Source: Promethearchaeota archaeon
GTDB taxonomy: Archaea; Asgardarchaeota; Lokiarchaeia; Sigyniarchaeales; SOKP01
Assembly: GCA_030606485.1 (NCBI GenBank)
Contig: JAUWGH010000004.1
Span: forward strand, 90,001-122,000
Reading direction: 5' to 3'
DNA: 32,000 nt
Within the stretch, counting starts at the first letter, position 1, and each line of letters starts with the position of its first letter. Shown piece after piece: positions 6,059-9,980 of this stretch. The notes under the pieces were generated by a model that searched no databases, was not told the DNA's origin, and worked only from the letters and a program-made list of their open reading frames with translations. A program made the position numbers and the translations under genes.

Positions 6059-6277
6059 TTAGGCGCCACCGGCGATATTTGGGAGTATAATAACTTCGTC
6101 TGTTGCTTTTATTATAGTATCTTTGTCAGCTTTCTTGCCGTTGACTAATATACCAAAAAATTTACTTTCTAGGTTTAATTCTTTTAGTAGAGCTGCGACT
6201 GTTAATTGTTTTTCAACTTTATATGAGGTATATATACCTGTTTCTATAATTTGAGGAATTTGCTCTATTTTTATCAC
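6059..6277 (-). CDS. MoaD/ThiS/SAMP-family beta-grasp (ubiquitin-like) protein
   Basis: 72 aa; LTVAALLKEL, ILVNGK and DEVIILPNIAGG pattern typical of ThiS/MoaD; ends GG-A. Confidence 0.85.
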   Translation of the reverse strand: MIKIEQIPQIIETGIYTSYKVEKQLTVAALLKELNLESKFFGILVNGKKADKDTIIKATDEVIILPNIAGGA

Positions 6278-6489: not shown

Positions 6490-8097
6490 GTGTTTATCGA
6501 TCAAATTTTAACTTCAGAAAATAAAGAAAATAAAAAATTCTTAATTTTAGAATTAATAAAATTTATCTCCACTGAAGCCAAAAAGATAGCAGAAATGGGA
6601 GACTTTTTTGAAGCTGCAGAAATTTTATCATCTACAGCAAATTTATTGGAAGAAATTGATCAAGATATTGCAAAAGAACTCTTAAAGAATGCAATGAAAT
6701 ATTGGGATAAACAAATAGAGACTTGCAAAAAACAAGCTAAATTTCTTGAAATTGCTGAATTACACATTAAACAAGCAGAAATATATCGAGACAAATTCAG
6801 GAATACAAAGAAAGAGAAAGAAAATATCCTTTATGCTATCCAATTCCTAAATCATGAAGCCGATGTTCGTCTTGAATTCAATGAGTTAGAAGCGGTTGCT
6901 CGAACATTTCAAAATATCGCGAATTTATATAACCAGATTTCAAATTTTAGAAAAGCAATTAAGTTCAACAAAATGGCAATTAAACTTGCTAAGGAGCACG
7001 GCTATTACCACATCCTTCAATACACCTATCAGCAATTATTTTCTTGTTTTTCTGAGTTAGGCGATTATAATTCGGCTAAAGAAATTGTATTAGTTGGAAT
7101 TGAATATTTCGCTTCTGAGGCATTAAAATATGAGCAAAAGGACATTCTCAACCTAAATTTGTCCGCACTTTACCAAATTATAAAAAAATTATATTTTATG
7201 TTAAACGATACGGATAACTATGTTTCTTATGCAAAAAAAGAAGCGAGTACATATATAAGCATTGCACAATCCTTAGGTAATGATCCTACTGATGCAGAAA
7301 AAAAAGGAACTCTATATCGCGGAGCAGCATTATGCTATAATGAAATTCAAAATAATCTGATTGAGTGTGCATCATGTTTTTTCCTAGCTGGAAATTTTTT
7401 TCATTCAATAGAAAAGAACAGTGATGCAGCAGAAAATTATAATAATGCAGCAATGGTATTTGGGCAAATAGGTAATTACCAAAAAGCTTTTGAATTATAC
7501 ATCAAGGCAGCATTAAATTATCAAAATATAAATAACGTTAGAAATTGTCTTGAAAATTTCTTGAATGCATATGATCTTACTCTTAAAGAGGATATTGAGT
7601 TTAATAGAACTGAACTATACAATTATCTTATTCAAGGACTAAATAAATACGCCAAAGAAAAAATAAAAACAAAAGAATTCTATTCAGCAGCAACGTCTAT
7701 TTTAGAAAGTCTTAAATTTTACTCAAGTCTCAATAGTGCGCGTTTTAGTCCAGAAATATTTGCTGAAATGGTTAGGAGGATTTCGAAAAATTACTATAAA
7801 GCAGCAAGTTTTAAAACCATTCGACCACGCAATATACGATTTAGTTATTTTTTAGCTGCGCTATCACGCCTTTTATTAAAACAAATTGATGAAGCTAAAG
7901 AAATTATGAAAGAGGTTAATACGAATGGTAGCCGAGTGGAAAAATATAAAGCAATTGTAAATCAAATCATTGAATGGATCAATGAAGATAAAGAAATTTT
8001 AATATCGGATTTTCCTCAAAACATACAAAAATTTATTTTGCGATACGACGAAGTTAAGTATATTATTTCTTTATTTGAAAATATTCATGAGTCATAA
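6490..8097 (+). CDS. TPR / alpha-SNAP-like helical repeat protein
   Basis: Repeated A-x-x-x-Y/F-x-x-A helix pairs (EAAEILSSTA, KAIKFNKMA, DAAENYNNAA, KAFELYIKAA); all-alpha; no TM; frame open from 6409, so the start may be upstream. Confidence 0.8.
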   Translation: MFIDQILTSENKENKKFLILELIKFISTEAKKIAEMGDFFEAAEILSSTANLLEEIDQDIAKELLKNAMKYWDKQIETCKKQAKFLEIAELHIKQAEIYRDKFRNTKKEKENILYAIQFLNHEADVRLEFNELEAVARTFQNIANLYNQISNFRKAIKFNKMAIKLAKEHGYYHILQYTYQQLFSCFSELGDYNSAKEIVLVGIEYFASEALKYEQKDILNLNLSALYQIIKKLYFMLNDTDNYVSYAKKEASTYISIAQSLGNDPTDAEKKGTLYRGAALCYNEIQNNLIECASCFFLAGNFFHSIEKNSDAAENYNNAAMVFGQIGNYQKAFELYIKAALNYQNINNVRNCLENFLNAYDLTLKEDIEFNRTELYNYLIQGLNKYAKEKIKTKEFYSAATSILESLKFYSSLNSARFSPEIFAEMVRRISKNYYKAASFKTIRPRNIRFSYFLAALSRLLLKQIDEAKEIMKEVNTNGSRVEKYKAIVNQIIEWINEDKEILISDFPQNIQKFILRYDEVKYIISLFENIHES

Positions 8098-8131
8098 TTC
8101 ATTTTACTCTTTTTTTTAAAAAATAAAGACC

Positions 8132-8186
8132 TTTAAATACTAATTTTAAGAATGGATAGCGTGCAAAAGTAAATTTGCACTAGCTA
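8132..8186 (+). promoter_or_regulatory. Candidate archaeal promoter (TATA box TTTAAATA 8132-8139) with palindrome GTGCAAA-N6-TTTGCAC (8161-8180)
   Basis: TATA-like octamer preceded by an A-rich BRE-like stretch; perfect 7-bp inverted repeat about 22-41 nt downstream, overlapping the expected transcription start. Confidence 0.55.
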
Positions 8187-8206
8187 ACAAAAAGGTGATT
8201 ATTTAA

Positions 8207-8317
8207 ATGAATAAGAAGAGTATTATTGCATTAGCAATCTTATTAGCGGTTGCATACGGAATTAATATGTCTATGGCAGGAGTGGCTATTCCTGGCTGTG
8301 CTGATGGAGTTCCGTAA
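8207..8317 (+). CDS. 36-aa small secreted or membrane peptide (MNKKSIIALAILLAVAYGINMSMAGVAIPGCADGVP)
   Basis: Not in the ORF track. ATG immediately after an in-frame TAA; SD AGGTGA at 8192-8197; basic N-region, hydrophobic H-region, S-M-A cleavage-like site; T-tract downstream. Confidence 0.75.
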   Translation: MNKKSIIALAILLAVAYGINMSMAGVAIPGCADGVP

Positions 8318-8339
8318 GTAATTCAAGCTAATAAGTTTA

Positions 8340-8355
8340 TTTTTTTCTTTTTTTT
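8340..8355 (+). terminator. Archaeal-type oligo-T terminator after the micro-gene
   Basis: TTTTTTTCTTTTTTTT starting 23 nt after the stop codon. Confidence 0.5.
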
Positions 8356-8603
8356 ATTTCATATCAGTTTTATTCAACATAATTACTTTTTTATATAAAA
8401 TTAAAACCTAAAATATCAAAAAAATCCTTTCAACAATTAAATATGTTTGTAGGACTCTATTATGAAACCTAATCATGAATTATATTAATTTTTAAGAAAT
8501 GGGTAGGAAATGGGAAAGCTAAGGTGGTAATATTTTTCAATTAGAAGGTTTTTATTTAATTAATCACAGAATTAATATATTAAAAAAAAAAGGTTGATGT
8601 CTT

Positions 8604-9980
8604 TTGCATGGACCAGTAGAACCGTTTAAGATTAAAGTGGTTGAGCCCGTTAAGATACCATCTGAGAAAAGAAGACAAGAAGCAATAAGAGAAGCAGGAT
8701 TTAATACTTTTCTACTTCTATCAGAAGATGTTTTTATTGATTTACTTACAGATTCGGGAACATCCGCAATGTCTGATAACCAATGGGCGGGAATGATGCT
8801 CGGAGATGAGGCTTATGCGGGAAGTAAAAATTTTTACACCCTAGAAAAAGCAGTGCAAGATGTCTTGGGTTATTATTATATGGTACCCACGCATCAAGGG
8901 AGAGGCGCCGAGCATTTGATGTCTAAAAATTTAATTAAACCAGGTCAGCTAGTTCCAAGAAATATGTATTTTACGACTTCGAAATTGCATGTAGAATTAT
9001 CTGGTGGTATTATGCCTGATGTAATCATTGATGAAGCGCATGATCCAGAAAATACAAATCCATTTAAAGGAAACATTGATCTAAAGAAATTGGAGAAATT
9101 AATTGATGAACATGGAGTTGAAAAAATCGCCTATATTAATATTGAAATGGATGTAAATATGGCTGGAGGCCAACCTGTTTCAATGCAAAATTTGAGTGAA
9201 GTATATGAATTCGCCAAAGAGCATAAATTAAAGGTTATTTTTGACGCAACGCGTTCAAGTGAAAATGCATACTTTATTAGAGAAAGAGAAAAAGGATATG
9301 AAGATACTCCTATTATTGATATTCTCAGAGAAATGATGAGTTATTCTGATGGTTGTATTTATTCTGCGAAGAAAGATTGTCTAGTGAACATTGGTGGCTT
9401 TCTTGCAACTCATGACAAGGAAATTTTTGAAAAAACCCGATCTGAAGTTGTTGTGTACGAGGGTCTTCACACATACGGTGGAATGGCGGGGCGTGATATG
9501 GAAGCTGTAGCAAGAGGTTTGCGGGAAGGGACCCAATATGAATACCTTAAATATAGAACTAACCAAACACGATATTTTGGAGAGTTACTCATAAAAGAAA
9601 ACATTCCTGTTGTGAAGCCAATAGGTGGTCATGCAGTATTTCTTAATGCTTTAAAGTTTTTACCCCATATACCACGGGATCAATGGCCTGCGCAAACTCT
9701 TTCGGCTGCAATATATGAAGACTCGGGTGTCAGATCCATGGAGCGTGGAGCAGTTTCAAAAGGAAGAGATAAAATTACAGGTGAAAATATCTTTCCCAAG
9801 TTAGAATTAGTTCGACTTACTATTCCCCGTAGAGTTTATACAAATACACATATGGAATACACCGCGGAATCAATCATAAGGCTTTATGAAAAGAAAGATA
9901 CAATTCCAGGATTAAAAATGGTTCATGAGCCAAAGTATCTTAGGTTCTTTCAGTCAAGATTTGAACAAGTTAGCCTTTAA
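8604..9980 (+). CDS. tpl: Tyrosine phenol-lyase (PLP-dependent beta-eliminating lyase)
   Basis: Co-linear with known TPL: EPFKIKVVE, DLLTDSGT, GDEAYAGS (Tyr71 equivalent), NMYFTT (Thr124 equivalent), SAKKD (PLP lysine), SMERG (Arg381 equivalent), RLTIPRRVY, LRFF; TTG start. Confidence 0.9.
   Translation: MHGPVEPFKIKVVEPVKIPSEKRRQEAIREAGFNTFLLLSEDVFIDLLTDSGTSAMSDNQWAGMMLGDEAYAGSKNFYTLEKAVQDVLGYYYMVPTHQGRGAEHLMSKNLIKPGQLVPRNMYFTTSKLHVELSGGIMPDVIIDEAHDPENTNPFKGNIDLKKLEKLIDEHGVEKIAYINIEMDVNMAGGQPVSMQNLSEVYEFAKEHKLKVIFDATRSSENAYFIREREKGYEDTPIIDILREMMSYSDGCIYSAKKDCLVNIGGFLATHDKEIFEKTRSEVVVYEGLHTYGGMAGRDMEAVARGLREGTQYEYLKYRTNQTRYFGELLIKENIPVVKPIGGHAVFLNALKFLPHIPRDQWPAQTLSAAIYEDSGVRSMERGAVSKGRDKITGENIFPKLELVRLTIPRRVYTNTHMEYTAESIIRLYEKKDTIPGLKMVHEPKYLRFFQSRFEQVSL

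Follow-up and report, generated by a model that had tools for sequence, protein, structure and literature searches.

A conserved 36-residue micro-protein with a signal-like head and a Cys-containing tail in one Loki-type order of Asgard archaea

As shown by the comparison with its relatives described below, a 36-codon open reading frame (ORF) in the Asgard DNA analysed here is a real gene under strong purifying selection and not a chance ORF, and its product appears to represent a micro-protein family of one Loki-type Asgard order, undescribed in the libraries and the literature searched. As for the role of this micro-protein, the reading that we favour, with a probability of roughly 0.4, is export through Sec followed by cleavage by signal peptidase I, which would release a thiol peptide of 10-14 residues. 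The existence of the gene is a matter of observation, and we infer the export, the topology, the cleavage site and the target of the peptide. Throughout, the window denotes the whole stretch of 32,000 nucleotides that was analysed, and the coordinates of the gene and of its expression signals in the window are listed in Table 1.

Table 1. The peptide gene, its parts and its expression signals in the window
Feature	Coordinates	Strand	Remark
Promoter: purine-rich BRE-like AAAGACC, then exact TATA box TTTAAATA	8125..8139	+	archaeal type
5'-UTR hairpin, 7-bp stem GTGCAAA/TTTGCAC, 6-nt loop	8161..8180	+	predicted transcript 5' end
Shine-Dalgarno AGGTGA	8193..8198	+	8 nt 5' of ATG
CDS, 36-aa micro-protein	8207..8317	+	ATG 8207 to TAA 8315-8317, stop included
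Residues 1-24	8207..8278	+	putative signal peptide or membrane anchor
Residues 25-36, tail G-V-[SA]-x-P-G-C-x-[ED]-x-x-P	8279..8314	+	conserved in the f1 peptides
3'-UTR block, 17 nt (GTAATTCAAGCTAATAA)	8318..8334	+	near-identical between both paralogues
Oligo-T terminator: T7 (8340-8346), C, T8 (8348-8355)	8340..8355	+	T-runs in sequence

An in-frame TAA (8204-8206) directly abuts the ATG, so the ORF cannot extend further upstream and the frame is exactly 36 codons. Its translation is, letter for letter, the peptide quoted in an earlier note on this DNA, and the AGGTGA Shine-Dalgarno (SD) sequence, the upstream TATA box, the palindrome and the downstream T-tract that the note reported are all present at the locus. 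The exact TATA box (8132-8139) lies 67 nt 5' of the ATG, and from the usual spacing between a TATA box and the transcription start the latter would be expected near 8162; the palindrome at 8161-8180 folds with -11 kcal/mol (z=-2.0). Moreover, the ORF forms a GC island, with a GC content of 0.35-0.37 against 0.15-0.21 in the flanks. The architecture alone is unconvincing, since it is not rare: in a six-frame scan of the own genome, 19 of 5144 ATG-started frames of 30-45 aa have a K/R head together with at least 20 uncharged residues, and it is conservation that proves the status of the gene. An Rfam search over 7800-8900 at E<=1 gave just a chance snoRNA-like match and no RNA family. As for transcripts, one possible RNA run (X20) covers 8660-8835 only, inside the neighbouring lyase gene, and the runs in which the locus occurs (X25-X27) look like DNA data: their contigs are 5-26 kb long and come from a close relative, at a depth of up to ~250x. 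The contigs of these three runs, taken from the public assemblies of one 2025 study, stop exactly at the peptide gene (8205-8334), as expected of a two-copy repeat, and the ~250x depth suggests an enrichment of the close relative that is a potential source of RNA or proteome data.

In fact, the own genome holds a second copy of the gene, hereafter copy b, on another contig (C1:159575-159682), which encodes an identical peptide, and both copies, each in the same context, are also present in three sister species (G001-G003), with all eight peptides (two copies in each of four species) identical. The 21 variable columns of the CDS comprise 20 third codon positions (20/20, P~3e-10) and the first base of the start codon, which is ATG in six copies and TTG in two, from two species, with the frame kept. 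With such a third-position pattern, the element under constraint cannot be an RNA gene. Outside a block reaching from about -18 to ~+18 plus the T-runs, copy a (that of the window) and copy b have flanks that do not align; the first 18 nt after the stop are 94% identical between them, and 10 synonymous sites within the CDS differ. The 17-nt block after the stop, which lies at L014 4687-4703 in the locus of copy b, could be the outcome of gene conversion or an RNA target site. Selection is seen in the wider family as well, where about 40 further loci are intact and the dN/dS over 41 distinct CDS is 0.135, at a pS of 0.72 which is saturated; by part, the dN/dS is 0.115 for the head (residues 1-24) and 0.146 for the tail (residues 25-36). 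A few loci show other fates. For example, L041 (G012:C64:3708-3815, minus strand) is a family copy with an internal TAA, likely a pseudogene, and L095 (G009:C73) is a 166-aa frame with only a fragment of the head motif, both of them being decayed or recombined copies; at L089 (G027:C10), two copies of the f4 type described below (6172-6270 and 7131-7232, minus strand) lie ~1 kb apart as a local duplication.

The expression unit is conserved along with the peptide, in its promoter as well as in its SD and terminator. Of 43 distinct family loci, 31 have the exact TTTAAATA at 40-90 nt 5' of the start and 42 have a T-run of at least five within 55 nt after the stop, and SDs of the GGTGA, GGGTG or GTGAT type are seen in about half of the family loci. 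Hairpins in the 5' UTR with z<-1.64 occur at 30% of the 43 loci, with a sequence that differs by locus; for instance, the hairpin of copy b (L014 4520-4580) has a different sequence from that of the window, is stronger (-15.1 kcal/mol, z=-3.2) and pairs with part of the SD. Hairpins pairing with the SD are also seen at L030, L066 and L083, and they may serve translational masking or mRNA stabilisation.

The homologues are 36-40 aa long, end about five residues past an invariant PGC and occur as 1-4 stand-alone copies per genome. By a profile search of whole genomes, the gene is found in 33-35 of the 154 genomes of the window's order, with 27-32 of 134 genomes of family f1, 2 of 14 of f2 and 3-4 of 4 of f4, and in none of 246 genomes that sample the remainder of the phylum. 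Within f1 it occurs in nine small genera, and in the species-rich genera of f1 the same search gave nothing or weak matches only, with 0-4 of 54 genomes for genus g11 and 0-1 of 42 for genus g2. Across a wider range, a strict degenerate DNA pattern was scanned over 185,579 species genomes and revealed 39 loci, all labelled Promethearchaeota or Promethearchaeia except one Hermodarchaeota and some labelled 'uncultured archaeon'; six pattern matches in Bacillaceae (Bacillus, Robertmurraya and one MAG) were taken as chance. The scan confirms a Loki-type Asgard origin, an Asgard source being what the earlier note had assumed. Among 1.84 billion representative proteins, searched exhaustively with an HMM, only 27 cluster representatives matched, each of which is a small ORF ending with the motif or an upstream-extended call of such an ORF; the long proteins P0029, P0031 and P0045 in the same 90% clusters are unrelated clustering artefacts, and the 5074-aa repeat protein P0018 is an unrelated motif artefact.

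No family was assigned by Pfam or NCBIfam, where a search at E<=10 gave nothing above cut-off and the sub-threshold profile matches were only two models of signal peptides, Phr_nterm (E=0.04) and halo_sig_pep (E=0.02). The ESM Atlas holds the exact sequence and offers no usable neighbour, and a literature search on the sequence motifs found no relevant paper. The earlier note, which knew of no described peptide of this kind, is thus borne out as far as Pfam, NCBIfam and the literature searched are concerned, and the lack of conservation in close relatives that would have spoken against its reading is not what is seen, the gene being conserved there. Its word 'unannotated' holds in one sense only: the gene is uncharacterised and falls into no Pfam or NCBIfam family, but the exact 36-aa sequence is on record in the NCBI, IMG and ENA protein collections, with homologues named 'hypothetical protein', so that gene callers do find the gene and it is uncharacterised rather than never called.

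The anatomy of the peptide is best described from the 31 distinct peptides of family f1. The consensus starts with M, zero to four residues and K-K, from which a hydrophobic run follows, and continues after the run as [LI]-[SNT]-[ML]-A-x-A, G25-V26, S27, a variable residue, P29-G30-C31, x, E33, x, x, P36 and the stop. K3 is found in 27 of the 31, and so is K4. In the window peptide, the n-region is MNKK, the uncharged hydrophobic run or h-region spans S5 to I19, and the c-region is N20-A24 with the small residues S22 and A24 at -3 and -1 relative to the candidate cleavage site. Within the head, L9, L13, Y17, G18 and M21 are invariant or nearly so, as is G25 just behind it, conservation has a periodicity of ~4-4.5 residues, and G18 places a helix-breaking Gly at -7. 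Position 22 (-3) is A in 27 peptides, S in three and V in one; position 23 (-2) is free (entropy 2.1; T/A/S/E/M/K); position 24 (-1) is A in 26, M in four and S in one. Altogether, the pattern of small residues at -3 and -1, a free -2 and the G18 breaker is present in 26-27 of the 31, and the four variants with Met at -1 have an S-M-A site two residues upstream. In the tail, G25, V26, P29, G30, C31 and P36 are invariant (31/31) and E33 is found in 30, the window genome having Asp there; the C-terminus is a Pro five residues past the Cys in every f1 peptide, and an acidic residue always lies within three residues of the Cys.

Beyond these peptides the picture is more varied. In the f4 subfamily the corresponding part reads G-I-S-S-[FW]-M-G-G-V-S-D-P-G-C followed by four residues, so that the aligned -3 is Phe or Trp, with a possible candidate site one residue later. 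The most divergent members keep the head motif and have a changed tail, the Cys being missing in some, and the variant P0021 carries an insertion with R and D between the h-region and A-x-A, from which it follows that this part need not sit in the membrane. AlphaFold2 with the family alignment predicts a helix over residues 3-24 and a coil over 25-36 at a mean pLDDT of 75.5; a homodimer prediction, which scored 0.06 against a mark of 0.42, plays no part in the readings given below. The tail motif occurs nowhere else in the own genome.

According to the cleavage reading, the stand-alone and apparently strongly promoted gene would encode a Sec-type pre-peptide that is inserted post-translationally, with the Lys-Lys head in the cytoplasm and the tail outside. 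Cleavage after A-x-A, here S-M-A, would then fall to the housekeeping type I signal peptidase (S26/Sec11-like, one per genome) and yield the 12-residue G-V-A-I-P-G-C-A-D-G-V-P in the window genome and products of 10-14 residues in other lineages; the released peptide would have a free thiol, a single carboxylate side chain and a C-terminal Pro resistant to carboxypeptidases. The S26 gene is a single-copy housekeeping gene present in the own genome and in 121 of 135 family genomes. In some genera it lies next to the peptide gene, and this adjacent S26 was considered as a dedicated paralogue and rejected, as it is the same single-copy gene, also present in genera in which the peptide was not found.

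A basic N-region, a hydrophobic H-region and small residues at -3 and -1 define the substrates of Sec and signal peptidase I, and it is in these terms that the earlier note had read the peptide. That reading is partly supported. The n/h/c layout looks like a textbook one, with a hydrophobic run of 13-15 residues and a Gly at -7; A, S or V occupies -3, A occupies -1 in 26 of 31, and an invariant G-V follows at +1 and +2. The conserved-variable-conserved pattern of residues 22-24, with charge tolerated at the mid-position only, is typical of signal-peptidase I sites rather than of a helix face. Moreover, the predicted helix ends exactly at -1 (residue 24), and the C-terminal Pro is fixed; the charged insertion of P0021, the two sub-threshold matches to models of signal peptides and the presence of S26 count on the same side. 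What does not agree with it is a head constrained like the tail and with a period of about four residues, which is unexpected of an ordinary disposable signal peptide, as well as Met at -1 in four f1 peptides, Phe or Trp at the aligned -3 in f4 and the divergent members in which the tail varies. Besides, a linear and unmodified 12-mer would probably be short-lived among peptide-fermenting archaea, which argues against its release.

If released, the tail would most likely be a fixed extracellular ligand, whose partner may be a conserved protein of the surface or the membrane, or else a thiophilic metal. From genus to genus the tail hardly changes, and 1-4 identical gene copies encode it, which argues for a fixed ligand rather than a strain-specific code, and the near-invariant Cys with its nearby acid, the multi-copy genes and the patchy distribution at the level of the order would fit such a ligand. 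Of the roles that the earlier note had in mind, a strain-specific pheromone code is disfavoured because the tail does not diversify, and a classical antimicrobial is unlikely because the peptide is anionic and non-amphipathic. Against this reading stands the finding that the conserved neighbours include no gene for a receptor, for import or for processing. A further step, that this is the first ribosomally made and Sec-exported extracellular peptide ligand described in archaea, either a signal or a thiol metal-binder, specific to this order and with a conserved surface partner, is in our view unlikely.

Next comes the possibility, a tentative one, that the peptide stays uncleaved as a single-pass membrane micro-protein with its N-terminus inside and its C-terminus outside, similar to a tail anchor and with the PGC-x-E tail at the outer surface. 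Here a helix of 20-23 residues would pack through a face of small residues (G18, A22, A24/G25) against itself or against a larger membrane protein, and the role of the peptide would be that of a small subunit, regulatory or structural, in the manner of sarcolipin, KdpF, AcrZ or yeast Pmp1/2. This is nearly as likely as cleavage because the hydrophobic head is constrained as much as the tail (dN/dS 0.115 vs 0.146). The near-invariant L9, L13, Y17, G18, M21 and G25 with their period of 4-4.5 residues point the same way, as do a predicted helix 3-24 long enough for a bilayer, the f4 peptides, whose Phe/Trp and Asp are placed as at a membrane interface without a clean A-x-A, and the divergent members, which retain the head motif and not the tail. 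Most bacterial proteins of less than 50 aa with one hydrophobic segment are, moreover, membrane-resident. However, the pattern at 22-24, where position 23 admits E or K, suits a peptidase site better than a helix face, and the strongly hydrophobic run has just 13-15 residues before N, S or T follows. Furthermore, no copy shares an operon with the gene of a membrane-protein partner, and the peptide was not found in at least 90 species of two genera of the same family that keep the housekeeping membrane machinery.

It is improbable that processing is instead directed by the Cys, with P-G-C as a lipobox-like or other modification site at which the Cys would be lipidated or cross-linked and the chain cut beside it, leaving a tiny lipopeptide or a stub linked to the surface. 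P29-G30-C31 is the best conserved element common to f1 and f4, and the acidic residue never more than three residues away would also suit such a site. The surroundings do not: the lipobox [LVI]-[ASTVI]-[GAS]-C has no counterpart here, as -2 relative to the Cys is an invariant Pro, the Cys lies 11 residues past the h-region, and -3 is the most variable position (I in 19, T in three, Y, V and F in two each, G, S and Q; D in f4). The Cys itself is missing in some divergent members. A six-frame scan of the own genome found a signal-like head with PGC only in the two peptide copies, and since no other protein of the genome shares head plus PGC or the tail motif, it cannot be a sorting signal of general use. 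In addition, few lipobox proteins are reported from Asgard archaea (PMC12462473).

Still less probable is a small hydrophobic peptide similar to type I toxins, multi-copy and stand-alone, masked by the structure of its 5' UTR and controlled by RNA. In line with it, there are 1-4 stand-alone copies with a patchy distribution, hairpins in the 5' UTR at ~30% of loci, some of them pairing with the SD, and the 17-nt block of the 3' UTR conserved between the paralogues. But synonymous sites vary freely over the whole CDS and the flanks of the paralogues are otherwise unalignable, so that no co-duplicated antisense RNA gene is visible, although an RNA lying wholly within the 3' UTR is conceivable, and Rfam gives nothing. 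The tail is Pro/Gly-rich and anionic instead of the charged tail typical of toxins, and a deep amino-acid conservation across families is atypical. To our knowledge, no type I toxin system has been shown in archaea.

The genomic neighbourhood varies from copy to copy. The copy in the window lies between a TPR/SNAP-like gene upstream and a tryptophanase-type beta-eliminating lyase downstream (8604-9980, plus strand), and copy b lies near a TPP enzyme, adenylosuccinate synthetase and a Roadblock-Ras GTPase. In several other genera the order is thiolase, DUF35, S26 signal peptidase, Alba and peptide, and a further arrangement elsewhere is threonine aldolase, peptide, DUF35 and thiolase. Clustering of the neighbours of 41 loci gave only thiolase/DUF35, S26 peptidase, Alba, beta-eliminating lyases, GTPases and TPR genes, none of them universal, and no conserved maturation enzyme, transporter, receptor or importer, or kinase among them. 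Lyases flank the peptide twice, the second being of the threonine-aldolase type and upstream (L045 3124-4179), and their presence in two unrelated arrangements is probably chance. The GTPase near copy b (L014 6253-7323 on G000:C1, two genes downstream) is a 357-aa protein of the Ras family (Ras E=5e-47) whose N-terminal Roadblock/LC7 match in Pfam is below cut-off (20.9 vs 23 bits), and its relatives are found near the peptide in three other loci. In the genera in which the peptide was not found, the slot after Alba holds no peptide analogue; a conserved small ORF with two hydrophobic segments is seen there between the S26 signal peptidase and Alba genes, namely at L097 960-1178 and L099 1089-1307 (72 aa), both with the N-terminus M-[AG]-W-T-P-P-S-K-F, and at L096 1187-1354 (55 aa). 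No such two-segment ORF lies between S26 and Alba in the own genome (L100).

Among these neighbours, the TPR gene invites a comparison with the Rap-Phr pairs of the RRNPP type, in which case the exported peptide would be taken up again and recognised by the TPR protein, whose gene lies 109 nt upstream (6490-8097, plus strand). We give this very little credence. In its favour, the peptide gene is next to the TPR gene and on the same strand, both in the window and in each of the three sister species; in three other genomes (G019, G150 and G006) the distance between the TPR gene and a peptide copy is 2-4 kb, and the architecture of the precursor is Phr-like. On the other hand, the TPR gene is found in 51 of 54 and 40 of 42 species of two genera in which no peptide was found, and such a lack of co-variation does not support a pair; copy b and most copies elsewhere have other neighbours, the adjacency being confined to one genus and one of two copies, and the tail, as said, does not diversify. 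The TPR protein, of 535 aa, matches the SNAP (soluble NSF attachment protein, Pfam E=8e-8) and TPR profiles only, with no DNA-binding or phosphatase domain detected; its gene belongs to the single-copy core, with 128 of 135 family genomes having it at ~40% identity against 33 of 135 for the peptide, and judged from its profile matches the protein may be an Asgard alpha-SNAP-like protein.

Three other candidates were rejected. A class III (type IV pilin-like) signal peptide does not fit the residue after K-K, which is V in 11, A in seven, I and T in four each, L and S in two each and N in one, without a conserved G/A; a RiPP precursor finds no conserved neighbouring radical SAM, YcaO, cyclase or peptidase-transporter gene at the 41 loci; and a PGF-CTERM/archaeosortase substrate would need the reverse order, the peptide running from basic head through helix and PGC to its end with no cargo domain.

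The small proteins of Asgard archaea, the closest known prokaryotic relatives of eukaryotes, are almost unexplored, and this family illustrates the amount of conserved coding sequence that lies under the usual cut-offs of ORF length. Very strong purifying selection, apparently strong promotion, several identical copies and an occurrence found in a single order only together imply a specific and important role. A released tail would be the first Phr-like exported peptide of archaea and would open a way to study communication or metal chemistry among the syntrophic archaea of sediments; as a ligand it would point to a system of cell-cell or cell-environment communication in Asgard archaea without a described counterpart. 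If the peptide is uncleaved, it would be a lineage-specific subunit of a membrane machine.

Several known systems bear a likeness to this peptide. Lipobox prolipoproteins (in bacteria, the substrates of Lgt and Lsp; in archaea, the substrates of AliA/AliB, PMC12462473) likewise have a signal-like head followed by an invariant Gly-Cys. The Asgard peptide differs from them in a misfit of -3/-2 to [LVI][ASTVI], in a Cys that is too far from the h-region, in leaving five residues only, and in that no larger cargo shares the motif. Type I toxins such as Hok, Ldr, TisB, Fst and BsrG are also small, hydrophobic, multi-copy and stand-alone with structured 5' UTRs, but the Asgard peptide has no conserved antisense partner visible in its flanks, an anionic Pro/Gly tail and a deep sequence conservation.

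Closer in build are sarcolipin and phospholamban, KdpF, AcrZ and yeast Pmp1/Pmp2, which have 30-40 aa, one conserved hydrophobic helix and a few residues exposed outside, and the Pmp1/Pmp2 proteolipids are likewise encoded by duplicated, near-identical genes. There is no sequence similarity to sarcolipin, KdpF, AcrZ or the Pmp proteins, and those have no A-x-A with a Pro/Gly/Cys tail; the bacterial small membrane regulators, moreover, are usually in an operon with their partner, whereas the Asgard gene stands alone. As for the Phr pro-peptides of Bacillus, which are secreted inhibitors of Rap phosphatases, one homologue matches Phr_nterm (NCBIfam TIGR04429) at 14.4 bits against a 25-bit cut-off, the E=0.04 match mentioned above, and the window peptide itself gives no match. 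The Asgard peptide is unlike Phr in that this sub-cut-off score amounts to no homology, and in having no co-varying receptor, a near-invariant tail, an Asgard host and several identical gene copies. Yet the two have in common a precursor of 36-44 aa with a Lys-rich n-region and a hydrophobic core, a site of the A-x-A type followed by only 10-19 residues, and a stand-alone gene with its own expression signals.
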